A stretch of 32,000 bases of DNA, from positions 6,377-38,376 of the forward strand of contig CAJAVE010000223.1 in assembly GCA_903945325.1 (NCBI GenBank). Reading direction: 5' to 3'. Every line of letters starts with the position of its first letter. Position 1 is the stretch's first letter. This stretch comes from an uncultured beta proteobacterium. GTDB lineage: Bacteria > Pseudomonadota > Gammaproteobacteria > Burkholderiales > Burkholderiaceae_C. This document shows positions 19,751-30,887 of the stretch, piece by piece. Under the pieces are notes generated by a model. That model was not told the origin of the DNA and searched no databases. It worked only from the letters and a program-made list of their open reading frames with translations. A program made the translations under genes and the position numbers.

Positions 19751-21355
19751 TCAGCTTTGCAAAAACATCCGGTACACCGGGTTGGCCGTTTCTTCCACAA
19801 AGGGGTAGTCTAGCGTTTGCAGGAACTTGGCGAATGCTTTGTCATCGGACTTGGGTACCTGCAAGCCAACCAGGATGCGGCCGTAGTCAGCACCCTGGTT
19901 GCGATAGTGGAACAGGCTAATGTTCCAGCCCGGGCGCATCAGGCTCAAAAACTTCATCAGTGCACCGGGCCGTTCGGGAAACACAAAGCGCAGCAAACGC
20001 TCGTCCTGCGCCAGGCTGGAGATGCCACCCACCATGTGGCGGATGTGCTCTTTGGCGAGTTCATCGTGGGTCAGGTCCAGGGTTTTGAAGCCATGCTTGG
20101 TGAAGTTGGCTGCCACCTTGGTCGACTCGCCGCGCGCTTGTGTGGTCAGGCCCACAAACACATGCGCCTGCGCCGCGTCGCTGATGCGGTAGTTGAACTC
20201 GGTCACATTGCGCGGGCCGCCGGGCAGCTCGCCAATCAGTTCACAAAAACGTTTGAAGCTGCCGCGTTCTTCAGGGATGGTCACCGCAAACAGGGCCTCG
20301 CGCTCTTCACCCACCTCGGCGCGCTCGGCCACAAAGCGCAGGCGGTCAAAGTTCATGTTGGCGCCGCACAAAATGGCCGCGTAGGTTTCACCCTTGGTCT
20401 TGTTCCTGGCGACGTACTGCTTGATGGCAGCTACGCCCAGCGCACCTGCGGGCTCCACAATGCTGCGGGTGTCAATGAAAACGTCTTTGATGGCGGCGCA
20501 AACGGAGTCGGTGTCCACCGTGATGTATTCGTCCACCAGGCCACTGGCGACGCGGAAGGTTTCTTCGCCGACCAGCTTCACGGCGGTGCCGTCAGAGAAC
20601 AGGCCTACGTCGGGCAACGTCACCCGCTTCTTGGCAGCTATGGACTGAATCATCGCGTCCGAGTCATTCATCTGCACGCCAATGACCTTGATGCGCGGGT
20701 CCACCGCCTTAATATAGTTGGCCACACCGGCGATCAGGCCGCCGCCGCCAATGGCGACAAACACGGCGTCCAGCCCGGCGCTGTTTTTGCCGCGGGATTT
20801 TTGTCCCGATTTGGCGGCTTTGTCTGCGCCAAGGGTCTGCACCTGGCGCAGCATTTCCATGGCAATGGTGCCCTGGCCGGCGATGACATCGGGGTCATCA
20901 AACGGATGCACAAAGGTCAGGCCCTGCTGCTTTTGCAGTTCCAGCGAATGGCCGAAGGCATCGGAGTAGCTCTCGCCAAACAGCACCACTTCGCCACCAA
21001 AGCCGCGCACCGCATCTACTTTGACCTGCGGTGTGGTGGTGGGCATCACGATCACGGCGCGGGTGCCGAGCTTGCTGGCGCTCAGGGCCACACCCTGGGC
21101 GTGGTTGCCAGCGGAGGCGCAAATAACCCCATTTTGCAGCTGCTCGGTGCTCAAATGGGCCATCTTGTTGTATGCACCGCGCAGTTTAAAGCTGCGCACG
21201 GGTTGCTGGTCTTCGCGCTTCAGCAGCACGGTGTTGTGCAGGCGGCGGCTCAGGTTGCGGGCGGGCTCCAGCGCGGTCTCGCTGGCCACGTCATACACGC
21301 GGGCGGTGAGAATTTTCTTCAGGTAATCAGCGGGGGAAAGGTTCTGGACGGGCAT
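19751..21355 (-). CDS. ilvA: Threonine ammonia-lyase, biosynthetic (two C-terminal ACT-like regulatory repeats)
   Basis: PLP-lysine motif SFKLRGAYN, the Gly-rich loop GGGGLIAG, and 534 aa in length. Confidence 0.95.
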   Translation of the reverse strand: MPVQNLSPADYLKKILTARVYDVASETALEPARNLSRRLHNTVLLKREDQQPVRSFKLRGAYNKMAHLSTEQLQNGVICASAGNHAQGVALSASKLGTRAVIVMPTTTPQVKVDAVRGFGGEVVLFGESYSDAFGHSLELQKQQGLTFVHPFDDPDVIAGQGTIAMEMLRQVQTLGADKAAKSGQKSRGKNSAGLDAVFVAIGGGGLIAGVANYIKAVDPRIKVIGVQMNDSDAMIQSIAAKKRVTLPDVGLFSDGTAVKLVGEETFRVASGLVDEYITVDTDSVCAAIKDVFIDTRSIVEPAGALGVAAIKQYVARNKTKGETYAAILCGANMNFDRLRFVAERAEVGEEREALFAVTIPEERGSFKRFCELIGELPGGPRNVTEFNYRISDAAQAHVFVGLTTQARGESTKVAANFTKHGFKTLDLTHDELAKEHIRHMVGGISSLAQDERLLRFVFPERPGALMKFLSLMRPGWNISLFHYRNQGADYGRILVGLQVPKSDDKAFAKFLQTLDYPFVEETANPVYRMFLQS

Positions 21356-21376
21356 GGTGGTTAAACTCCTGTTCCC

Positions 21377-21410
21377 ATTATAGATAAGTAGTTTTGCCCC
21401 GCGCGGGGCA
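21377..21410 (-). promoter_or_regulatory. Candidate ilvA promoter -10 (TATAAT) plus a 16-nt perfect GC palindrome over the -35 zone
   Basis: The complement of 21377-21382 is tataat, 21 nt upstream of the ilvA ATG, with AGGAG between them. tgccccgcgcggggca (21395-21410) is self-complementary. Confidence 0.3.
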
Positions 21411-21427
21411 GTTTTAAAGGTGGAAAT

Positions 21428-21877
21428 ATGGAATGCACAGTCAGTTGGACCGGCGGCTTGAAAACCCGCTCAGGGATGGGTTTTGTCGCCGAAACTGGCA
21501 GCGGCCACACCCTCATGATGGACGGTGCCCCCGATGAGGCGAAGCCGGAAAACGGTGGGTTGAATCTGGCTCCACGCCCTCTTGAGACCGTGCTGGCCGG
21601 AACCGGAGGTTGCACGGCCTATGACGTGGTGCTGATTTTGAAGCGGGGTCGCCATGCTGTGCATGGATGCACGGTCAAATTGACGGCGGAGCGGGCTGAA
21701 ACAGAACCCAAGGTTTTCACCAAAATCCATATGCACTTCACGGTGACCGGAAAAGGCGTCCCCGCCATGGCAGTAGAACGTGCTGTTGCCATGAGCCACG
21801 AAAAGTATTGCTCAGCCAGCATCATGTTGGCCAAGACTGCTGACATTACGACCAGTTTTGAGTTGGTGGAGGGCTGA
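21428..21877 (+). CDS. OsmC/Ohr-family protein
   Basis: 149 aa with the two conserved Cys contexts (...GTGGCTAYD... and ...EKYCSAS...). Confidence 0.85.
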   Translation: MECTVSWTGGLKTRSGMGFVAETGSGHTLMMDGAPDEAKPENGGLNLAPRPLETVLAGTGGCTAYDVVLILKRGRHAVHGCTVKLTAERAETEPKVFTKIHMHFTVTGKGVPAMAVERAVAMSHEKYCSASIMLAKTADITTSFELVEG

Positions 21878-21901
21878 GTCCTGCTGCTCGGTGTGCCGGG
21901 G

Positions 21902-22519
21902 TCAGATATGGTGCGCAACCGTTGTCATGACCTTGGCGGCAGCGCGCATCAAGTCTTTTACGGGTGCTGGCAATTCCATGGCTCCCGCGTCTTGAGCATC
22001 TTGCGCATGGCGTAGTTCGTCGTCGCGCATCTGTGCCACGATTGCGCGCGACGCATGGTCAGCAGTTGGCAGCTTGTCGAGGTGGCTTTGTAAGTGTGCG
22101 CCAACTTGAACTTCCGTTTCCACCACAAAGCCCAAGCTCACTGCATCGCCCAGTCGGCCCGCCAGAAGGCCTAAACCAAAAGCGCCGGCATACCACAATG
22201 GGTTGAGAATGGACGGCCGAGCCTTCAGCTCCGTCAAGCGCTGCTCGGTCCACGCCAGGTGGTCAGTCTCTTCAATGCAGGCGCGCGTGAAATGCGCCCG
22301 CAGTACCGGGTTGCGCGTGGTCAGTGCTTGGGCTGTGTATAGCGCTTGTGCACACACTTCGCCCACATGGTTAACCCGCATGAGCGATGCGGCAGAGCGG
22401 CTCTCAAGGGCATCGAGATGGGTTGCTTGGTCTGTAACAGTGGGGCAGCTTGTTGCTGCACGGTGTTTGACAAACAGCGTACGCAGAGCGGAATCGGCGG
22501 TTATGAGCAGCGAATCCAA
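21902..22519 (-). CDS. coq7: Demethoxyubiquinone hydroxylase (Coq7-type di-iron protein)
   Basis: Di-iron motifs EETDHLAW and [11 protein letters not shown] start is preceded by AGGAG at 6-nt spacing. Confidence 0.9.
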
Positions 22520-22652
22520 TGTCGACTCCTAATAGGGTTCAGCCCTTAAGTCTAGCGCGAATAGGCTCGAGGCAATGAGAAACAAATTGTTGCAACACCG
22601 CAACGGAAGGGCTTGAAATTGGCCACTTTCCCGCTTTTTAGAGAGCAAAGCT

Positions 22653-22681
22653 TTGCCAAATAGCCATGGGTCTGGTGCAAT
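22653..22681 (+). promoter_or_regulatory. Candidate sigma70 promoter of the expressed porin allele
   Basis: TTGCCA (22653-22658), 17 nt, then TGgTGCAAT (extended -10; hexamer 22676-22681). It is followed by a 9-bp stem-loop at 22686-22710 (ccaacttcc/ggaggttgg) in a roughly 90-nt leader. Confidence 0.35.
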
Positions 22682-22770
22682 AGAGCCAACTTCCTGAACT
22701 AGGAGGTTGGCCCGGGGTTCTGATCCCGTAGGACCTGAGCCCGCTGTTTAACCTTTTTGAGAAACCCGAA

Positions 22771-23751
22771 ATGAAAAAAACCCTCATCGCTTTGGCTGTA
22801 TTGGCCGCATCTACCGCTTCCATGGCACAAGTTACTTTGTACGGCGTTGCTGACGTGTCCGTTGGCGCTACCGACAAGGCTGGCCTTGGTTTGGCTAACG
22901 ACAAGTTTCAAGCTATCGCTTCTAACGTTCTGAACAACGGCAATTCACGCTTCGGCATGAAGGGCGTGGAAGATCTGGGCGGCGGCATGACTGTTGGTTT
23001 CAACTACGAAGGCGGCATCAACATTGCTAACGGCGCTGGTAACACCAGCGGCGGTCAATTGTTCTCCCGCGCAGCAAACGTGTACATGCAAGGTGGTTTC
23101 GGCCGCCTGACAGCTGGCCGCCAGTTGACAACTTCTTTCTTCAGCGTTGCTTCTTGGGAATTGACCGGTACAGCTAACTACTCTGTAGTAGCCAACCAGT
23201 TCGGTTTCGGCGGTGGCGCTGGCCCACGTGACAGCGCTGCTGTCAAGTACGACATTGCTGCAAGCGGCTTCAGTGGTTCTTTGATGTTCGTACCAGAAGG
23301 TAATGCAGCTTACACCGCTGGTACACCTGCTACTGCAAAGGGCAAGTATGACGTGGCTGTTGGCTACGCTGCTGGTCCTTTGGCTGCAAGCTTGGCTTAC
23401 AACAAGGTTGATGCTGGCAACGAGGGTGTGGTTGTGGGCGGTTCTTACAACTTTGGTATGGTCAAGGTCGCGGCTAGCTGGACCCAAGGTAAAACTGGTG
23501 CAGGCGTTGCCTTCGTAGAAGGCTACACATTGGGCGCATCCATCCCAATGGGCGCATTCACCTTCACAGCTGACATGGCACAGGACACCATCTCCCGCGC
23601 TGCTAACAGCACAGATACCGACTTCCTGCTGGAAGCCAAGTACGCTTTGTCCAAGCGTACATTCGTGTACGGTGTGTACATGATGGACGGCAAGGGTAAG
23701 ACCGCTTCTGACGTCAGCGGCTACGCTTTGGGCCTGCGTCACAACTTCTGA
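22771..23751 (+). CDS. Gram-negative general porin (Omp32-type), expressed-position allele
   Basis: MKKTLIALAVLAASTASMA/QVTLYG signal peptide, beta-strand periodicity and the C-terminal ...GLRHNF. Codon usage looks like that of a highly expressed gene. Confidence 0.93.
   Translation: MKKTLIALAVLAASTASMAQVTLYGVADVSVGATDKAGLGLANDKFQAIASNVLNNGNSRFGMKGVEDLGGGMTVGFNYEGGINIANGAGNTSGGQLFSRAANVYMQGGFGRLTAGRQLTTSFFSVASWELTGTANYSVVANQFGFGGGAGPRDSAAVKYDIAASGFSGSLMFVPEGNAAYTAGTPATAKGKYDVAVGYAAGPLAASLAYNKVDAGNEGVVVGGSYNFGMVKVAASWTQGKTGAGVAFVEGYTLGASIPMGAFTFTADMAQDTISRAANSTDTDFLLEAKYALSKRTFVYGVYMMDGKGKTASDVSGYALGLRHNF
22789..22868 (+). repeat. Left copy of the 80-bp direct repeat (candidate attL core) inside the porin signal-peptide codons
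   Basis: 78/80 identical to 28980-29059 (mismatches at 22818 and 22821, both synonymous). Homology begins abruptly at 22789. Confidence 0.85.
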
Positions 23752-23793
23752 TCTTACGCTGGCGTAAGCCAGTTGTTGATCTAAAGCTAAAAA

Positions 23794-23823
23794 ACCCGCT
23801 GTGGAAACACAGTGGGTTTTTTT
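23794..23823 (+). terminator. Rho-independent terminator of porin allele 1
   Basis: acccgctgtg-gaaa-cacagtgggt followed by a T7 run. Confidence 0.85.
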
Positions 23824-23876
23824 ACGTCTGCATAAAACTGATACAGTGTTTGCATCAACAACGAAGGGGAATGGAA

Positions 23877-24119
23877 ATGACAGACGCAGCAGCAGCACAA
23901 AAAGTCTTGGACGACTTGATTGCGCAACAGAAAGACATCAACGCGAAAGTTGAAGCGCAGTTAAAGGCAACACGCGAAGCTGCACTTGCAACCGTGAAAA
24001 GTCTTTGCACGGCACACAGTTTTACGGCGACGGACTTAAAAGGTGCGCTTGTCGTCAAACGCACTAGTGCTGCTGCAAAAAAGGCAGCGCCTCGTAAAAG
24101 CACACGCGCCAAAAAGTAA
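23877..24119 (+). CDS. H-NS-like protein: N-terminal oligomerisation-type domain plus a short Lys/Ala-rich tail, lacking the canonical C-terminal DNA-binding domain
   Basis: MTDAAAAQKVLDDLIAQQKDINAKVEAQLKATREAALATVKSLCTAHSFTATDLKG... resembles betaproteobacterial H-NS N-termini. It ends ...KRTSAAAKKAAPRKSTRAKK with no TWxGxGRxP-type motif. GGGGA SD lies 6 nt before ATG 23877; an alternative ATG is at 23871. Confidence 0.6.
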   Translation: MTDAAAAQKVLDDLIAQQKDINAKVEAQLKATREAALATVKSLCTAHSFTATDLKGALVVKRTSAAAKKAAPRKSTRAKK

Positions 24120-24882
24120 TACGTCTGTCGCGCATTTAACGCGCGTTCAGCAGTACTTTGCGCTCACGCTGCTGCAACAGCCCCAGGTTGCAGCGAACAA
24201 CGCTTCCTTGCGCGATTTGACAGAAGACGAAGCTGCACAGCTAGAACGCATCTGCAATGCACTGCTGCAATGCAAACAACAGCAGCCAGTTCAAGTAGCA
24301 AGTCTGCGCAGTGCGCTGTCCAAAGCGCAATACAGCGCGTTCAAAGTACAAACACGCGCACCAACATCCAGCGCCGATGTATTTGACAGGAAGAGCAGGC
24401 CGCAAGAGCTAACGAAGTACTTGGCAATGCTGAAAACTGCAGACTTAACGAATGCACGCGCTGACCGCGCGGCCGCAAGCAGAATACCAAGACGCATTGG
24501 CAATTTGTCAGCAGCAGAACACTGGCGAAATCAATCTGAAACTCAATACGAACACGCGCTGGAGTACTTGGACGAAACACTTGGCGCATCAAACAACCAA
24601 ACAGAGTACGAAATTCGCGCTTGGTTGGACAGAGAATTTGAATTGTCGGCGGAGAGCACGATTAGTTGTGATGACGGTGGAGTTGCGCGCGTAATTGGCA
24701 GTCGCAGCAAGCACTGTCTTGTTACAGTGCAAACAAAAAAAGCAGCGAAGCAAGAAAAGTTGGGGACGTGCGCACAAGATGCATTACAACAGGCTGCGCT
24801 TGAGCTAATCTACGTTCCCGTTACAACGGATGCAGCGCAAACAATGCAACTAAAGGCAATGTTGGGCAAACTGAAACGCTGA
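24043..24882 (+). CDS. Hypothetical protein (island cargo, no family recognised)
   Basis: Long open frame of 279 codons from GTG 24043. The start is uncertain (GTG 24043/24067, TTG 24208 or ATG 24427), and the first option overlaps the H-NS-like gene by 77 nt. Confidence 0.55.
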   Translation: MRLSSNALVLLQKRQRLVKAHAPKSNTSVAHLTRVQQYFALTLLQQPQVAANNASLRDLTEDEAAQLERICNALLQCKQQQPVQVASLRSALSKAQYSAFKVQTRAPTSSADVFDRKSRPQELTKYLAMLKTADLTNARADRAAASRIPRRIGNLSAAEHWRNQSETQYEHALEYLDETLGASNNQTEYEIRAWLDREFELSAESTISCDDGGVARVIGSRSKHCLVTVQTKKAAKQEKLGTCAQDALQQAALELIYVPVTTDAAQTMQLKAMLGKLKR

Positions 24883-24898
24883 TTTGCACATCCGCGCA

Positions 24899-25498
24899 CT
24901 AAATCAACTCAACAGCAGCACGCATCAAGTTAGGATTGAGCGAAATGTAGCGTTGTGTGGTGGACAAATTCTTGTGTCCAGCCAGCGCCATCAAAATATG
25001 CATCGCCACGCCTTTGTCGGCCAACGAACTCAGAAAAAATCTGCGGCCACTATGACTTGATGCGCCTTCAACACCAGCGCGCGCATACAGTTGGCTGAAA
25101 TGCTGGCACAAAGTGTTTGCCGAAAAACCGCGCAACGGATTTTTTTGTGTTGGAAACAGCGCACGTTGTGCATTCGCGTAACAAACAGCAATCAAATCCT
25201 TGTTTGCAAAGCGCGCACGCAAATACGCCAACAATTCGTCGCGCAACTTCTGCGGCAGTAACACGGTGCGGCCAACATTGCCCTTAGTTTGATCCCGTGA
25301 AAGATGAACTTCAGCGCGAATGGTACCGTCACCTGCAACAACATCGGCCAGACGTAGTGCAGCAACTTCACCGACGCGAAGACCTGCGTGATGTGTCATC
25401 AGCAACATACATTTGTTACGAGCAGAGTGTGGATGTACAGCGCAGTACAGCATAACTTTGCGCAATTCTCGTTCTGTTAGTACTCTGGCTTGTGACAT
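24899..25498 (-). CDS. Small tyrosine recombinase, catalytic domain only (FimB/FimE-sized)
   Basis: 199 aa. By hand count the catalytic residues are R41 (GLRVGE), K72 (TKG), H149-x-x-R152 (SHSGRR), H175 (GHKN) and Y184 (TQRY). AGGAG lies 7 nt before the ATG. Confidence 0.88.
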   Translation of the reverse strand: MSQARVLTERELRKVMLYCAVHPHSARNKCMLLMTHHAGLRVGEVAALRLADVVAGDGTIRAEVHLSRDQTKGNVGRTVLLPQKLRDELLAYLRARFANKDLIAVCYANAQRALFPTQKNPLRGFSANTLCQHFSQLYARAGVEGASSHSGRRFFLSSLADKGVAMHILMALAGHKNLSTTQRYISLNPNLMRAAVELI

Positions 25499-25701
25499 TA
25501 AAAATCTCCTCTATCAAACATCGTCATGTGTTCAATTATTTATTGTTTGATTAGGTAAGTCGATGAAAGAAGGTGACGAAAAGATCATCAGCAAAATCAA
25601 CAACTTCGGCGAAGACCACGCCTAATGTGTATTACCTGTGTTTCTGCAATGCGCATCGTCAGCGTAATCGCGCTGAGACAAATTGCGCCTTAATGAAACG
25701 A

Positions 25702-25971
25702 CTACTTGGCTGATTTGAGCTGAGCTTGCGCGTATGCCGCTTGCCGTCGTGCACGTTGCGCGTATACCAAGTCTGCTTGCTTCTTCTGTGCAGCCATCTG
25801 CCGAATCGCCAAAATCTTGTCCATCTCCGTTGCGGGTTGTGCTTTGGCGTCAGCAGCAGCAATCTGCTGCATCACACCATTGACACGCTGCTGTTGCTTC
25901 ATTGCAGTTGGCACAACTGCCGCAGGCTGTTGCTGCTGTGCGTTTCCAATCACCTCAAATACCTTGACCAT
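25702..25971 (-). CDS. Hypothetical Gln/Ala-rich small protein
   Basis: 89 aa, with AGGAG 6 nt upstream of ATG 25971. It lies upstream of and co-oriented with the small recombinase. Confidence 0.6.
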   Translation of the reverse strand: MVKVFEVIGNAQQQQPAAVVPTAMKQQQRVNGVMQQIAAADAKAQPATEMDKILAIRQMAAQKKQADLVYAQRARRQAAYAQAQLKSAK

Positions 25972-26112
25972 TGCGTTCTCCTTTTGTTTGATATTTAGCC
26001 AACCGAATTAAAGCAGTTGCACCAGTGTCAACGATGTGCATTCAAACCGACAACTACAAGAAACTGACGAAACAAATTGTTTGGTATTTCGTGGCACTGC
26101 ATAAATAGTTAC

Positions 26113-26667
26113 ATGCACACATTGGACGAACAATCACAACAAATCAAGCAGAAGCAGCGTGATCGCTTCCGTCGTGACATGTACAACTATCTTGCGCAGT
26201 ACTCAGAATTGATGACGCACGCTGTCACGCTGACATTTAATGGTAGAAAGCTTGAAGCATTGAAGCGTAAAGCAGACTGGATGCAAGGTGAAGCATACGA
26301 AAAACTGCTGCAACGCAGCTTCAAACACTTCGCAACACGCTTAAATCGGTGCGTGTACGGGAATGCAACACAGCGGTACGGAAAAACACTATTGATATTG
26401 CCAGTTATCGAAGGGTTGCAGCACGGCGAGTGTCCGCATTACCACTGTGCAATCGGCGCGACTGATCGTGTTGAGCATGCAGAGTTTGAACGCATGGTGA
26501 GAGATAGTTGGAGTAACGTAGCATTTGCTGGACACCAAATTGATGTGCAGCCGTATCGTGACAAAGGATGGTGTAGTTACATTAGCGGCGACGCTGTGTT
26601 TCTAAATCGGTTGAGCGTGGACTGGGACAATGTGCAATTGCCTGTTCACTTGTTGGCGCACTGCTGA
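26113..26667 (+). CDS. Putative HUH-type rolling-circle replication initiator (Rep-like)
   Basis: Motif order is AVTLTF (26221-26238), PHYHCAI with H-Y-H at 26437-26445, then GWCSYISGD (Tyr codon at 26578-26580). ATG 26113 is preferred over TTG 26077. Confidence 0.55.
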   Translation: MHTLDEQSQQIKQKQRDRFRRDMYNYLAQYSELMTHAVTLTFNGRKLEALKRKADWMQGEAYEKLLQRSFKHFATRLNRCVYGNATQRYGKTLLILPVIEGLQHGECPHYHCAIGATDRVEHAEFERMVRDSWSNVAFAGHQIDVQPYRDKGWCSYISGDAVFLNRLSVDWDNVQLPVHLLAHC

Positions 26668-26692
26668 AGAAATCTTCCTTTGGGCCATTGAC

Positions 26693-26711
26693 TTGAAGCG
26701 CAATGCTTCAA
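26693..26711 (+). other. 7-bp stem / 5-nt loop hairpin directly after the Rep-like stop codon
   Basis: ttgaagc-gcaat-gcttcaa with no T-run after it. It could be a nick-site/origin hairpin or an RNA structure. Confidence 0.5.
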
Positions 26712-26746
26712 TTACCGTCGGTGTGACTGAAAACATAACAACAACT

Positions 26747-26819
26747 GAAGACAACACAAGGCAACACAAACACAGAACAACGAAGACAAACAACACGACA
26801 ACAAAGACAGACGAAACCA
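26747..26819 (+). repeat. 73-nt thymine-free A/C-rich tract with an imperfect ~35-nt internal repeat
   Basis: There is no T between 26747 and 26819. GAAGACAA occurs at 26747 and 26782, with runs of AAC/ACA triplets. Confidence 0.8.
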
Positions 26820-26889
26820 TCGGTGTAATCATCGACAAATTGAAGACAGGCGCTAGAGTTGAACTGTGGACAACAAACAGGAGAAACGA

Positions 26890-27357
26890 ATGTCACAGTT
26901 ACTGCAAACACTGAAGCTTACATCGGCCCGCAAACAACGCGCACTACCCGAAGTAGTCAAGCGAAGAAACAAGATGCTGAAGAAGTTGACGGAACAGCGG
27001 GAGTTGGCGCTGGCGATAGCGGAGGGACGACTGTACGTACCAAAGCGTTTGCGCACCGTAGTTGACGGCGACACAGGACAAAAGACTGTGCGCGAAATGC
27101 CAGTTCGCATTAAAGCGTGGTGGTGGACTGGAGAGAAAGGCGAAACATTGCTGTCGCTTTTTTACGGAAGTAAAACATTAGAGTTGAGCAAGGGAAAGAC
27201 CGCCGTGGAGATTGCAAGCTTGATGGAACTTCCGAATGTGTTGGAGGTTGTCATCAACGCAGTGCAGAACAGCGAACTGGATGCACAGATTGAAGCGGCC
27301 AGTGTGAAACTGCGCGAAGGCTTCAAAGCGGGCAAGACAGTCAAGGCTGCGAAGTAG
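26890..27357 (+). CDS. Conserved-looking hypothetical protein (island cargo)
   Basis: AGGAG (26879-26883) lies 6 nt before ATG 26890. 155 aa: MSQLLQTLKLTSARKQRALPEVVKRRNKML...WWWTGEKGE...LSKGKTAVE... I recall similar proteins in genomic islands but cannot name the family with confidence. Confidence 0.65.
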   Translation: MSQLLQTLKLTSARKQRALPEVVKRRNKMLKKLTEQRELALAIAEGRLYVPKRLRTVVDGDTGQKTVREMPVRIKAWWWTGEKGETLLSLFYGSKTLELSKGKTAVEIASLMELPNVLEVVINAVQNSELDAQIEAASVKLREGFKAGKTVKAAK

Positions 27358-28789
27358 TTCGCGCTCCATTGTTGCGTCTGCTTTGCAGCAATCCAATGTT
27401 CTGTTCACCAGTCACTGTGCTTGCATAGTGATTGTTGATTACGTCAACGCTGGTGCGTGCATTGCGCGCCAGCGTTAGCAAGTCAATTCCCTGCCCGTAC
27501 AGCAAGCGGAATGTGATGGAGGAATGACGCAGACTGTACAGCGTGCGCGGTTGTCCATTGACGCCGTGCTTTAGTCCCGTGTCAGCCAACACCCAGTTAA
27601 AGTGCAAACTTAGTACGCTGTTGGCGTAACTCCTGTCGCGCAGATGTGGCAGGAACAAGTAATCATCGGGACTTGCGAGGCCAAGTTCAGCGTAATGTTT
27701 GCTGATTTGCTCGTAAATGCGCACTGCTGGTTGCAGTGTAACAATGGGTTTGTCGTGTTTCTTGGTTTCAGGAAGCGTCAATCGCAAATAGGTGTTCTGT
27801 CCGCGCAGCACTTCGACGTGTTTGTGTTTCAATGTCCACAAATCGCTGGGTCGTATGAAACTGTTAACCATAAACACAATAGCCCACGCAACATCAGGCG
27901 GCATGCGCTGGTCTGCATGGCGCAGTTTGTATGTCTTGCGTAGAGTGCTGCGACATTCTGGGTGCCGTACATTGCGCAATCTGCGTGCAGCGCGTGCAAT
28001 CATCCAATACTCTGTTGGCGTAAATGCACCGCGCGAGTTTGTAGTGATCTTGATCTTGGGAAACTGTGGCAGTTTGTCGAGTACACCAATCGCAATCGCG
28101 TGCTTGAGTACTTTGCGCACGATAAGCAGGTACTGACTGACAGTGATTGTGCTTAATGACGCACTCAGAAACTGCGTAAAGTCCAGCAACGCTTGGTAAT
28201 CAATGTCTGCTGGCGCAACTTTGGTCCAGCGTGTCAGTATGTGCGCATCCAAACGGTTGCGCATCACTTGCACACTCTCAATCGTAATCTCGCCGCGCTC
28301 CTGTCTGCACTGTTCATTTGCAAACATCTGCGCAGCCAGTGCGCCGAACGTGTGTTTGGGTTTGACTGGTGCAGATGAACGAATGACAGGTGACTGACTG
28401 ACGAGATTGTTGTGCAAATCGTCAGCATCATTGCTGCCAATGTAGTGTTTGGCAAGCAACAGTTCATAAAACTGGCGTGCAAAACTTTGTGCAACGCGCA
28501 GACTTTGGGTTTGTGTACTGCGTCTATGTGTGCTGCCTGCAATCCAGCAGCGTACTTGCCAAAACTTGCTGGCAGCAATCCTGAACACCGCCAGTTTATT
28601 GGGGTAGCCAGGTATTGCAGTAATGGTTGACGGTATTGGAACGGTGCGGCAGCGTTGTTTCGTGCGCATGACTGCATCGTTCGCTGCGTGAATTTGGTTA
28701 TCGGGAAATTGGTAGAGCATTGCTCCAGCATAGTGTTGCATACCGAAAAATGCGATCACTGCATACAGAACAACTGGTGACTGACTCAC
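27341..28789 (-). CDS. Tyrosine-type site-specific integrase (phage integrase family)
   Basis: N-terminal ...KLAVFRIAASKFWQVRCWIAGSTHRRSTQTQSLRVAQSFARQFYE (arm-type/SAM-like region), box II ...LYSLRHSSITF and the C-terminal ...ARNARTSVDVINNHYAS. The start is ambiguous (GTG 28789; ATG 28741, 28720 or 28669). Confidence 0.9.
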   Translation of the reverse strand: MSQSPVVLYAVIAFFGMQHYAGAMLYQFPDNQIHAANDAVMRTKQRCRTVPIPSTITAIPGYPNKLAVFRIAASKFWQVRCWIAGSTHRRSTQTQSLRVAQSFARQFYELLLAKHYIGSNDADDLHNNLVSQSPVIRSSAPVKPKHTFGALAAQMFANEQCRQERGEITIESVQVMRNRLDAHILTRWTKVAPADIDYQALLDFTQFLSASLSTITVSQYLLIVRKVLKHAIAIGVLDKLPQFPKIKITTNSRGAFTPTEYWMIARAARRLRNVRHPECRSTLRKTYKLRHADQRMPPDVAWAIVFMVNSFIRPSDLWTLKHKHVEVLRGQNTYLRLTLPETKKHDKPIVTLQPAVRIYEQISKHYAELGLASPDDYLFLPHLRDRSYANSVLSLHFNWVLADTGLKHGVNGQPRTLYSLRHSSITFRLLYGQGIDLLTLARNARTSVDVINNHYASTVTGEQNIGLLQSRRNNGARTTSQP

Positions 28790-28979
28790 TCAATGTCGCC
28801 GCAGTCGCAGCACGGTCTGCCAGTGTTTGCCAGCGTGCGAAATTGACGAATTCAAGCGTTGCACGCTGCGCTGAGTTGCACACTGCACACCGTACAACTC
28901 TGTGCACCAAAACATTGGCGTGCAATTGGCGTGATCATCAAGATTTGGTGGTGGTGTGTATTGAAACGAATTCACATTC

Positions 28980-29059
28980 GCTTTGGCTGTATTGGCCGCA
29001 TCTACCGCCTCGATGGCACAAGTTACTTTGTACGGCGTTGCTGACGTGTCCGTTGGCGC
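28980..29059 (+). repeat. Right copy of the 80-bp direct repeat (candidate attR core)
   Basis: 78/80 identical to 22789-22868. It is preceded by island DNA with an in-frame TGA at 28962-28964. Confidence 0.85.
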
Positions 29060-29948
29060 GATCAATCAAACTACTGGTCTTGGCTTGGCGAACGACAAGT
29101 TCCAAGCAATCGCTTCCAATGTTCTGAACAACGGAAATTCCCGCTTCGGCATGAAGGGCGTTGAAGATCTGGGCGGCGGCATGAAAGTTGGCTTCAACTA
29201 CGAAGGCGGTATCAACATCGCTACTGGCGCTGGCAACACCAGCGGCGGCACACTGTTCGCTCGCGCTGCCAATGTGTACCTTGAAGGCGGTTTTGGTCGC
29301 TTGACAGCTGGTCGTCAATTGACAACTTCCTTCTTCAGCGTTGCTTCATGGGAATTGACTGGTACAGCTAACTACTCTGTGGTTGCTAACCAGTTTGGTT
29401 TCAATGGTGGCGCTGGTCCTCGTGATCACGCTGCTGTCAAGTACGACATCGCTGCGAGCGGTTTCAATGGTTCCTTGATGTTCATCCCTGAAGGTGATGC
29501 AGTCTACGGTACACCTGCGAATCCTAAGGGCAAGTACGACGTGTCTGTTGGCTACGGTGCTGGTCCTCTGGTTGCTTCTTTGGCCTACAACAAGGTTGAT
29601 GCTGGCAATGAAGGTACCATTGTGGGTGGTTCTTACAACTTCGGCGCTGTCAAGGTTGCTGCTAGCTGGACACAAGGTAAAACTGGCGCAGGCGCCACGA
29701 TCGCTGAAGGCTACACATTGGGCGCTTCGGTCCCAATGGGCGCGTTCACTTTCACAGTTGACATTGCAAACGACACCAAGTTTGAAGACACCGACTGGCT
29801 GTTGGAAGCCAAGTACGCTTTGTCCAAGCGCACTTTCGTGTACGGCGTAATTGTTCGTGACGGCGCAAGCAAAGGTCGCGTGACTGCTGGCAACCCGCTG
29901 AACAAAGAAGTTGACGGCTACGCTCTGGGCCTGCGCCACAACTTCTGA
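28983..29948 (+). CDS. Porin allele 2, 5'-displaced: lacks the native ATG, the Lys-Lys n-region, an SD and a promoter
   Basis: Roughly 85% aa identity to allele 1 by eye, with the same C-terminal GLRHNF. The only in-frame starts are TTG 28983 (no SD) and ATG 29013 (inside the signal peptide). It is probably silent in this configuration and could be annotated as a pseudogene. Confidence 0.7.
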   Translation: MAVLAASTASMAQVTLYGVADVSVGAINQTTGLGLANDKFQAIASNVLNNGNSRFGMKGVEDLGGGMKVGFNYEGGINIATGAGNTSGGTLFARAANVYLEGGFGRLTAGRQLTTSFFSVASWELTGTANYSVVANQFGFNGGAGPRDHAAVKYDIAASGFNGSLMFIPEGDAVYGTPANPKGKYDVSVGYGAGPLVASLAYNKVDAGNEGTIVGGSYNFGAVKVAASWTQGKTGAGATIAEGYTLGASVPMGAFTFTVDIANDTKFEDTDWLLEAKYALSKRTFVYGVIVRDGASKGRVTAGNPLNKEVDGYALGLRHNF

Positions 29949-29987
29949 TCTAACGCTGGCGAAAGCCAGTTGTTGATCTAAGATCAA

Positions 29988-30019
29988 AGCCCCGCTACGG
30001 CAACGTAGTGGGGCTTTTT
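29988..30019 (+). terminator. Rho-independent terminator of porin allele 2
   Basis: agccccgctacg-gcaa-cgtagtggggct followed by a T5 run. It is homologous to the allele-1 terminator, with compensatory stem changes. Confidence 0.85.
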
Positions 30020-30038
30020 GCTGCCTGATTGGGTGGCG

Positions 30039-30887
30039 TTAGGCGTAGCGTTTGCTGCGCAAGTTGCCCTTCATATCGCTGAGCATTGGCTGTAACGTAT
30101 CACTGCCAATACGCAAGGCCATGCAGGTTGCCAGAATGTCGACGATCATCAGGTGCAGCAGGCGCGAAACCATTGGGCTGTATTTATCGAAGCTCTCCGG
30201 GTGGTCCGCGCTCAGGTGAATGTTTCCGGCGCTGGCCAGGGGCGAGCCACTGGCTGTGATGACGATCGTTGTTGCTCCGTTCTTGCGTGCGATGTCGCAG
30301 GCATCCATGAGATCCCGTGTGCGTCCTGAATTGCTGACAACGACGACGCAATCCCCTGGTCTCATCATCGAAGCAGCCATCACTTGCAGGTGGCCATCAC
30401 TGTAGGCGACCGTGTTGACGCCGAGCCTGAAGAACTTATGCTGCGCGTCTTGCGCCACTACGCCCGAGTTGCCCACGCCGAAGAACTGGATGCGATGCTT
30501 GCCTTCGTAGGCCACCATGAGTGCCGCCATGGCCTTGTCGATGGCAATGGTGCTGGCCTCATTGCGGTATTTCAGGAATGCCGCAACCGTGTTGTCGATA
30601 ACCTTCACCATCACGTCTGATGTTTTGTCGTCCCTGTCCACACTGCGGTGGATGAAGGGCACCCCTTCGTTGACCGTGCCGGCCAGCTTGCGTTTGAAGT
30701 CTGACAGGCCGTCATATCCAACACTTCGGCAAAATCGGACCACGGTGGGTTTGCTCACATGAGACCGGTCGGCCAGTATGCTCACCGGCAGCTTTGCAAA
30801 CGCACGTGGGTCGGCCAGGCACAACTTGCCCACCCGCTGTTCGGCAGGCGCCAGTGATGGCAGTGCGGCCTGTATGCGGTCTAGCAT
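30039..30887 (-). CDS. MurR/RpiR-family regulator (HexR-like; HTH_6 + SIS)
   Basis: N-terminal ...ILADRSHVSKPTVVRFCRSVGYDGLSDFK... and a SIS domain. It lies immediately downstream of zwf, as hexR does in many proteobacteria. Confidence 0.88.
   Translation of the reverse strand: MLDRIQAALPSLAPAEQRVGKLCLADPRAFAKLPVSILADRSHVSKPTVVRFCRSVGYDGLSDFKRKLAGTVNEGVPFIHRSVDRDDKTSDVMVKVIDNTVAAFLKYRNEASTIAIDKAMAALMVAYEGKHRIQFFGVGNSGVVAQDAQHKFFRLGVNTVAYSDGHLQVMAASMMRPGDCVVVVSNSGRTRDLMDACDIARKNGATTIVITASGSPLASAGNIHLSADHPESFDKYSPMVSRLLHLMIVDILATCMALRIGSDTLQPMLSDMKGNLRSKRYA

Follow-up and report, generated by a model that had tools for sequence, protein, structure and literature searches.

A putative integrative element in the 5' end of a porin gene that would exchange the expressed porin allele in an uncultured beta proteobacterium

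In this study, we describe a 6191-bp element (22787-28977) in a 32,000-nucleotide (nt) stretch of DNA from an uncultured beta proteobacterium (contig CAJAVE010000223.1 of assembly GCA_903945325.1; the whole stretch is referred to here as the window), and we propose that it was very probably inserted by tyrosine-integrase recombination into codons 6-10 of a resident porin gene, so as to swap the porin that is expressed. According to this model, the integrase would recombine at a short core, ttGCTTTGGCTG, which covers codons 6-10 of an Omp32-type porin gene located downstream of coq7. The element would bring with it a porin cassette devoid of promoter and start codon, extending from codon 7 to the terminator, together with approximately 5 kb of cargo (two small open reading frames (ORFs), a fast-evolving ORF, a small recombinase, a candidate HUH Rep, and a DUF6641 gene) and the integrase gene itself, which sits beside the site. 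Insertion would fuse the host promoter, 5' untranslated region (5'UTR), ATG, and first six codons (MKKTLI) in frame to the element porin to form por1, and the resident body, por2, would be pushed 6.2 kb downstream behind an in-frame TGA. This interpretation had been put forward in an initial annotation of the sequence, and it is supported by the comparisons with related genomes reported here. Coordinates are window positions throughout; labels of the type L001 denote fetched loci, and P-numbers denote database proteins.

Junctions of the element and empty sites

Both porin copies belong to family PF13609 and lie on the plus strand in the same orientation, 6191 bp apart. All of the features that the initial annotation had recorded were found within 2 nt of where it had placed them. 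It had described homology that starts abruptly at codon 7 with a near-identical first 80 nt, and the local DNA alignment of the two copies indeed begins at 22787/28978 with 80 of 82 nt identical; as had also been read, the alignment continues through the stop codon, a GNRA hairpin (GTAA loop in one copy, GAAA in the other), and the terminator, and ends at 23823/30019. The 82-nt repeat contains 2 mismatches, compared to 130 in the 818 nt elsewhere in the ungapped alignment (binomial P about 9e-5), and identity beyond it is about 84%. Had this 5' segment been no more conserved than the rest, the proposal would have lost its footing, as the initial annotation itself had pointed out; the repeat is, in fact, the 82-nt window with the fewest mismatches in the entire alignment. 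Moreover, where both copies encode the same amino acid, 2 of 26 codons differ within the repeat versus 69 of 237 in the remainder (Fisher P = 0.019). From 22885 onward, 9 differences fall in 35 codons, 9/9 of them synonymous, exactly as had been counted. A second conserved block of 67 nt (94% identity) is found at the 3' ends of the porins, where it comprises the last codons and the GTAA/GAAA hairpin.

The two copies differ in what precedes codon 7. The left copy has the promoter region, the ATG, and MKKTLI, while the right copy is preceded by unrelated DNA with an in-frame TGA at 28962-28964, and its next in-frame starts are a TTG at 28983 (codon 8), which has no Shine-Dalgarno sequence, and an ATG at codon 18; both descriptions agree with the initial reading. 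Since por2 lies behind a TGA and has neither Shine-Dalgarno sequence nor start, it would be unable to give rise to an exported porin. Both copies end in RHNF, and only por1 has a complete signal peptide. The MKKTLI segment occurs in every coq7-adjacent porin and in no integrase-adjacent porin, and a 5'UTR motif upstream of MKKTL[IV] porins is kept across genera. We infer that por1 is the sole porin expressed from the locus and that por2 is silent. In public gene calls, the displaced porin begins at Met18 inside the gene (29013-29948), giving a product of 311 amino acids (P0122, P0244), and on 34 contigs this version of por2 is entered as a plain 'predicted porin' despite having no signal peptide. 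The use of an internal Met by gene callers therefore conceals in the databases the missing signal peptide of displaced copies.

It had been suggested that the flanks, once joined, should match an uninterrupted coq7-porin-hexR locus in relatives, and this is what was found. The sequence obtained in silico by joining 21174-22786 to 28978-30100 is colinear with natural contigs of the same species. The conspecific contig L080 (6.9 kb) has the order ilvA-osmC-coq7-promoter-MKKTLI-porin-nucleotidyltransferase/HEPN-hexR-zwf, with the island absent and a single porin present. Its two flanks match the window at 97.6-99.3% identity (99.25% over 22520-22786, which takes in the intergenic region plus 16 nt at the start of the porin gene), at the 82-nt site it does not differ from the attR of the window, and its porin is of the por2 type. 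Two further contigs, L071 and L072, were among nine that were retrieved by a scan of JGI metagenomes with the 40-nt start of the repeat. They carry osmC-coq7-promoter-MKKTLI (L071 also ilvA), are 98.9% identical to the left flank of the window before continuing into por2-specific sequence, and are 100% identical to each other over their overlap. A protein search with the reconstructed MKKTLI+por2 sequence led to P0121, a full-length protein with 96% amino-acid identity whose contig, L056, reads MKKTLI-por2-type porin-hexR-zwf and is thus a further empty site. P0249 is another full-length MKKTLI version of por2 from empty-site genomes. These natural loci correspond to the predicted product of excision.

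When the 35 junctions of the window's population were classified by arm and porin type, the host arm joined to a por1-type or other non-por2 allele was seen as attL, the host arm joined to a por2-type allele as the empty site, and the element arm joined to a por2-type allele as attR; an element arm joined to a por1-type porin was never seen. Moreover, the exact por1 protein, P0125, is present on at least 18 contigs, and in each one with downstream context the cargo follows. Metagenomes that contain the window's population include JGI 3300045649 and ENA ERZ27313467.

The empty sites bear directly on two other explanations. Firstly, the porins could be tandem paralogues of the host, the second of which received the island in its 5' end, with gene conversion having evened out the first 80 nt. 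The porin alleles of the population are mosaic, so that conversion or recombination between alleles does occur, but conspecific and related contigs with an empty site carry a single porin between coq7 and hexR, por1 was never found without cargo, and each extra porin of Limnohabitans parvus (see below) comes with its own integrase unit. The presence of one porin rather than two in the empty-site genomes leads us to reject this alternative, which the initial annotation had kept open; it is in effect refuted and we regard it as highly improbable. Secondly, the element could be 23824-30019, carrying por2 and inserted after the terminator of a resident por1, given that homology also ends sharply at 23823/30019. 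However, that right end is the terminator of both genes, the nucleotide identity of por2 follows the host and not the cargo, and the empty sites join the por2 type, not por1, to the host start and the right flank, with L080 refuting this explanation outright; it can hardly be credited at all.

The locus is variable in other respects. In a sister lineage and in the conspecific strain with the empty site (L080 3277-3950, L057 11058-11518, L072 2103-2611), hexR is separated from the porin terminator by a Pol-beta nucleotidyltransferase and HEPN gene pair, which is not present in the window; this is a second small variable spot. Mosaic porin alleles have por1-like ends and a por2-like middle (L072 1065-2032 compared to window 28980-29948; P0123, P0126). 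Among conspecific strains, the synonymous divergence (dS) of por2 is 0.24, compared to 0.026 for the neighboring coq7, which indicates that the porin is a hot spot of recombination and diversity independently of the element.

Related loci, recombination site, and divergence

The same architecture is found in other genera. A scan with the integrase, taking one genome per species, returned 49 loci, mostly from Limnohabitans and other Comamonadaceae, and the protein database holds thousands of homologues. At 12 of the 15 loci with an integrase at least 56% identical, a porin without an MKKTL[IV] start lies divergently upstream of the integrase. Such start-less porins were delimited with a porin profile over stop-to-stop ORFs; they begin at a conserved ALA, with an in-frame stop 2-7 codons upstream in most loci, and the coq7-adjacent porins all carry MKKTL[IV]ALA. 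The question raised at the outset, whether the island sits at porin 5' ends elsewhere, can thus be answered: homologous integrases in Limnohabitans, Polaromonas, and their relatives adjoin a porin that is truncated at this same codon and has no start, and an MKKTL[IV] porin beside coq7 forms the far end of the island. The entire island, 6.2-8.4 kb in length and bounded by coq7 on the far side, was found in L001 (a complete Limnohabitans genome), L011, L012, L050, and L057. A complete element is also present in Limnohabitans sp. DCL3, which is listed as a strain and not as a metagenome bin, as is Limnohabitans parvus II-B4. The latter contains three tandem units (NZ_NESN01000005.1, about 102.6-125.8 kb; L079 1-17800, L003 1-21275) in the order coq7-promoter-por_1-[E]-por_2-[E]-por_3-[E]-por_4, where [E] stands for the element and the units measure 7011, 7289, and 6831 bp. 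One porin in this array, that beside coq7, has MKKTLI and three are start-less; all four are intact and 43-47% identical to one another. In L012, the partner porins have 391 and 295 residues and are 39% identical.

The only stretch conserved in both junction classes is the core ttGC[TA][CT]TGGCTG, approximately 10-12 nt long, which is common to all 32 junctions (8 attL-type and 24 attR-type). The initial annotation had taken the 80-bp repeats as attL and attR, the attachment sites at the two ends; the repeats do bound the element, but the 82-nt repeat is not the minimal site, this being the core. In L002, L004, L006, and L012, near-identical integrase-side arms are joined to different signal-peptide sequences, and the older copies of the L. 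parvus II-B4 array share only the 10-nt core. Taken together, these observations place the crossover at the left edge of the repeat, and with the exchange there each porin body retains the h- and c-regions of its own signal peptide. Integration at the core would then be catalyzed by the integrase. The sites in the window are direct repeats, and the window contains no further site. At the two mismatches of the repeat, attR has the state of the empty site and attL the other state; mapping of the crossover by these mismatches was set aside as suggestive only, L073 varying at these positions independently of porin type.

The divergence of the element is out of step with that of its host. When the window is compared with the L050/L070/L078 lineage, dS is 1.06-1.43 for host genes and 0.25-0.61 for element genes (integrase 0.30), and the 3-5 times lower dS of the element indicates transfer after divergence of the hosts. 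Likewise, the region 28664-28977, which includes the element-side arm, is 95.5% identical in L057, compared to 87% for the host flanks. The por2 body is 82.7% identical in nucleotide sequence to its counterpart in L050, and host genes are about 82% identical and cargo genes about 90%. Since por2 diverges in step with the host and por1 is tied to the cargo, por2 is the resident porin and por1 arrived with the horizontally moving element. The ratio of nonsynonymous to synonymous divergence (dN/dS) is about 0.07-0.15 for por2 and about 0.09-0.10 for the integrase, and every displaced porin seen is an intact ORF; the low dN/dS and the intactness of the displaced copies are compatible with recent insertion as well as with re-expression time and again. 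Strains separated by a flank dS of only about 0.03 differ in whether they carry the island.

The exchange is concentrated in predicted surface loops. The AlphaFold2 model of por1 (predicted local distance difference test, pLDDT, 87.7) is a 16-strand barrel, and the closest solved structure is Omp32 of Delftia acidovorans (template modeling, TM, score 0.78 for 2fgq and 0.75-0.78 for 2fgq and 1e54). With its 16 strands, internal L3, Sec signal peptide (por1), and C-terminal aromatic residue, the protein has the characteristics of an Omp32-type general porin. Differences between por1 and por2 occupy 36 of 117 positions in predicted loops, compared to 25 of 190 in strands and turns (Fisher P = 3.5e-4). 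Within the loops, the constriction loop L3 differs at 1 of 33 positions, L7 at 8 of 9, and L8 has 13 changes including insertions. With L7 and L8 almost fully replaced and L3 nearly unchanged, the swap would keep the channel and alter the exposed face. General porins are abundant surface proteins and frequent receptors of phages and bacteriocins. In the light of the model, the changed loops would fit selection by phages, bacteriocins, or grazers.

Some relatives are arranged differently. In L046 (6100-11100) and L038 (6800-11200), a more distant integrase (about 45% identical) has as its neighbors two porin bodies that converge on each other and carry their 5' cores as inverted repeats, and in L046 remnants of insertion sequences lie between the two bodies. 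Such an arrangement recalls the Mu G segment or a shufflon, and inversion would swap the body at the promoter. In L009 (1290-3870) and L039 (2930-5700), as well as in L010 and L040, inverted sites flank the integrase, (osmC,) coq7, the promoter, and MKKTLI, with a start-less porin on one side and the expressed porin on the other. The inverted arms of L009 are 88.6% identical over 271 nt, and inversion in loci of this type would move the promoter to the other porin. Alternative orientations of the inverted-site loci L046, L038, L009, and L039 were not observed. In a further six loci with an integrase about 45% identical (L019, L022, L025, L030, L033, L036), no MKK start or second site was found within 10 kb.

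Genes of the element and alternative explanations

The features of the locus and of the element are collected in Table 1. The G+C fraction of the island (0.44-0.53) is lower than that of the host flanks (0.57-0.64). The initial annotation had placed the 5' end of the large integrase about 190 bp from the right repeat, and the measured distance is 188 nt.

Table 1. Features of the porin locus and of the inserted element, in window coordinates
Feature	Position	Strand	Remarks
Host intergenic region, coq7-porin	22520-22770	+	Promoter region, 5'UTR, weak Shine-Dalgarno (GAGA); would serve whichever porin body is downstream
Host-derived ATG and codons 1-6 (MKKTLI)	22771-22788	+	Signal-peptide n-region
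por1	22771-23751	+	PF13609, E = 1.3e-42; host codons 1-6 fused to putatively element-borne body (codon 7 to stop)
attL, left 82-nt repeat	22787-22868	+	80/82 identical to 28978-29059; core GCTTTGGCTG at 22789-22798
por1 3'UTR	23752-23823	+	GTAA-loop hairpin and intrinsic terminator (23789-23822); inverted repeat, terminator-like match; porin cassette end
Small basic ORF	23850-24119	+	No Pfam/NCBIfam family; conserved in related elements
orf279, fast-evolving cargo gene	24043-24882	+	No family match
Small tyrosine recombinase, 199 amino acids, Xer/FimB/E-like	24899-25498	-	PF00589, E = 1.8e-24; phrog_216 integrase, E = 8e-36
orf89, small conserved cargo ORF	25702-25971	-	No family match; 97% amino-acid identity in L077
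Candidate HUH-type rolling-circle Rep	26077-26667	+	Weak PF23343 match, E = 0.0019, under family cut-off
DUF6641 protein	26866-27357	+	PF20346, E = 1.8e-9; phrog_31551, E = 9.7e-24; adjoins integrase in most related elements
Large tyrosine integrase	27341-28789	-	phrog_1 integrase, E = 8.9e-20; PF13102 core-binding (SAM-like) domain
Element-side arm (P arm), integrase to site	28790-28977		In-frame TGA 28962-28964; possible degenerate, frameshifted porin start TTGAAACGAATTCACATTC
attR, right 82-nt repeat	28978-29059	+	82/82 identical to site of empty-site contig L080
por2 body	28980-29948	+	PF13609, E = 1.8e-40; codon 7 to stop, intact ORF, without start codon or signal-peptide n-region
por2 3'UTR	29949-30019	+	GAAA-loop hairpin and terminator; homologous to 23752-23823
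hexR (host)	30039-30887	-	After por2 terminator

The true start of the large integrase is probably internal, giving 440-470 amino acids. Its residues R271, K301, Y376-x-x-R379-H380, and H412-Y413 are invariant in 15 homologues, and its fold matches only Cre, Tn1549 Int, IntI, lambda Int, and XerH (probability about 1 for the best four) in a search made with a model of low overall confidence (pLDDT 56), of which only the catalytic domain is confidently predicted (about 80). When a single sequence or a 15-sequence profile was compared with the sequences of solved structures, only the core-binding domain was matched (E = 0.1), and the integron-integrase model gave no match. The 199-amino-acid recombinase has weak matches to Xer and invertase models and a weak partial match to the integron-integrase model; it is missing from cargo-less and inverted-site loci. 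With regard to the other cargo genes, the motifs TLTF, HYHCAIG, and SYISG of the candidate Rep were read in the translation by eye only. The small basic ORF had been labeled H-NS-like, a label that we dropped for want of any Pfam, NCBIfam, or PHROG support. The orf279 gene evolves far faster than its neighbors (dN 0.24-0.26, dS 0.15-0.17, dN/dS ~1.5 versus L057, L050, and L070). No cargo protein matched a defense-system model. Phage structural, packaging, and lysis genes are absent, the PHROG matches being integrases and one unknown family; no matching locus was found in IMG/VR, and neither the integrase nor the DUF6641 protein matched GenBank phages. Plasmid matches consisted of integrases that are only 23-25% identical, on alphaproteobacterial plasmids. 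Rfam and tRNA scans of the window returned nothing, and the insertion site is thus not an RNA gene.

In some relatives, the element-side arm appears to preserve a trace of a porin start. The likeness of the Limnohabitans arms to the porin 5' end is significant (z 5-6), and in L001 (9705-9760) and L079 (9753-9810, 2464-2520) a decayed porin 5'UTR and start can be recognized (z 4.5-5.8 versus shuffles), with both its ATG and its ribosome-binding site destroyed. These traces suggest that the ancestor was a porin gene, once complete, that lost its expression signals. In the window, the likeness of TTGAAACGAATTCACATTC to ATGAAAAAAACCCTCATC was not significant in a shuffle test, and a decayed porin start in its arm is kept as a suggestion.

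Several observations weigh against the proposal. No consensus promoter was detected by a simple scan of the region preceding por1 (22520-22770). The porin of L080 is only 91.7% identical to the por2 body of the window, so that the two strains are not separated by one clean insertion or excision. The distal porin of L050 is 80% identical to por1 and the cargo about 90%; together with the mosaic alleles, this discrepancy indicates that the cassettes are also exchanged or are fast-evolving. No excised circle or attP junction, for which the initial annotation had suggested a search, was found in 9 metagenome site matches or 87 fetched loci, assembled contigs being a weak test for a rare circular molecule. 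No excisionase-like gene was recognized among the element genes with Pfam, PHROG, and NCBIfam-type models. In L005, L049, and L085, an integrase and a start-less porin lie beside hexR or ruvB, and within 10 kb there is neither a second porin nor coq7 nor cargo, and in L008 and L083 an integrase lies beside groES or DUF3047 with no porin; these partnerless or porin-less loci may be remnants or long-range rearrangements. Finally, the expressed porin and its nearest start-less neighbor invariably share a near-perfect tract that extends from 38 to >150 nt from the core (22787-22868/28978-29059 in the window, 16763/9752 in L079, 16551/9695 in L012, 18122/9704 in L001), even where the bodies are 39-47% identical. 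A tract of this length is not explained by a short-core crossover; it is possible that it stems from mostly conspecific transfer, from gene conversion, or from resolution to the right of the first exchange.

This tract can also be read in favor of RecA. If a small circular replicon with a 5'-truncated porin had been integrated by Campbell-type homologous recombination of the host through the conserved porin 5' segment, with no involvement of the integrase, the near identity of the newest copy pair would be accounted for; the candidate Rep gene would suit such a replicon, and a fixed left boundary of homology is expected under either mechanism. However, the older members of the L. parvus array share 10 nt, which is too short for RecA, and the porin proteins are 39% identical in L012 and 43-47% in L. 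parvus, so that integration of the Campbell type is unlikely. Moreover, in different genera, and in direct as well as inverted topologies, one integrase family always keeps the same distance and orientation relative to the cut porin. We therefore consider integration by RecA very unlikely.

A different objection accepts the insertion but takes the present copy to be a fixed relic that neither excises nor switches, the change of porin being a one-off by-product of an element that must replace the gene it interrupts. It is in agreement with the lack of a circle or attP junction and of a recognizable excisionase gene, with the different por2 allele of the empty-site strain, and with the finding that in the window's own population the contigs with context (L066, L067, L068; 99.9% identical) are all occupied. 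On the other hand, the integrase ORF is intact and has kept its catalytic residues, the dN/dS values of the integrase and of the intact por2 are low, presence of the island varies among closely related strains, and the element dS implies transfer after host divergence. A relic thus seems to us a rather unlikely description of this copy, and the integrase may still excise the element and restore por2.

Comparison with known systems

The element in the window has an adjacent integrase, attL/attR direct repeats, an attB site in relatives, and a history distinct from that of its host, as is characteristic of site-specific integrative elements; a circular form, or demonstrated excision or integration, is the one such feature not found. 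It does not have the make-up of a prophage or phage satellite. The closest parallels in terms of target are the integrative and conjugative element SXT/R391 in prfC and the dusA islands (IMEVchUSA3), in which a tyrosine integrase acts at a site in the first codons and disruption is compensated by an element that supplies a promoter and N-terminus to the resident gene (PMC8409611). The porin element has in common with them the tyrosine integrase, a site within the first codons of a conserved host gene, and compensation for the disruption. However, the arrangement is the reverse: the element arm has no usable start, a whole gene body takes over the resident promoter and N-terminus, and it is the resident body that is left start-less.

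Phage 21 and e14 in icd, as well as elements at the 3' ends of tRNA genes, carry a divergent duplicate of the displaced gene end and so rebuild a functional gene; these duplicates are functionally equivalent and short, covering the 3' end over tens of bp up to about 165 bp. The target-restoring logic of the icd prophages is common to the porin element, but here the duplicate amounts to 98% of the gene and differs from the resident copy in surface loops, and in related loci by up to 60% in protein sequence. The phage-borne porins Lc of PA-2 and NmpC of DLP12 are complete genes with their own expression signals in lambdoid prophages, and they act by regulation. There too, the choice of porin produced by the cell is altered by a mobile element. 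In contrast, phage genes are absent from the element described here, which matched nothing in phage collections, and its start-less porin would be expressed only by fusion at the target.

The array of L. parvus is reminiscent of integrons in that promoter-less cassettes are brought to one fixed promoter, with the newest nearest and older ones kept downstream. It differs in that each porin cassette brings its own integrase and cargo and begins at porin codon 7, in that the site lies inside the coding sequence and creates a translational fusion, and in that the cassettes have no start codon of their own. An IntI-type integrase, an attI site, and folded attC sites are lacking, and the repeat search found no attC-like imperfect palindrome, the boundary being the porin core. 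Resident inversion systems are known from R64 (Rci/pilV), the Gin G segment of phage Mu, and vsa/HvsR of Mycoplasma pulmonis. In switches of the shufflon type, recombination at a site within the 5' coding region connects one or another promoter-less body to a promoter and N-terminus that stay constant, and the silent copies are intact. The logic of the constant N-terminus is the same in the window, but there the sites are direct repeats on a mobile, horizontally transferred element. Inverted sites occur in L046, L038, L009, and L039, and these relatives may work like shufflons.

A broader reading, for which we judge the case to be almost evenly balanced and which is put forward tentatively, is that these loci form a 'porin cassette' family of freshwater Comamonadaceae with an integrase dedicated to codon 7, and that they provide a transferable form of phase variation for a protein of the phage-receptor class. 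Each insertion would set a new surface variant under the resident promoter and keep the old porin intact and start-less, repeated insertion would build integron-like arrays such as that of L. parvus II-B4 with its four porins, and excision, or inversion in the inverted-site relatives, would switch the displayed porin. We found no earlier description of a porin-replacing element family in the full-text literature that was searched, most subscription journals lying outside its coverage.

It seems that there is a third way for a mobile element to enter the 5' end of a gene, in which it would neither disrupt the gene nor supply a promoter, but take the resident expression signals for its own allele. 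If this is true, the one-step and recoverable replacement of a porin would give Limnohabitans, Rhodoferax, Polaromonas, and other abundant bacteria of lakes a new means of varying their surface, and it could account for part of the strain-level diversity of such lake bacteria.

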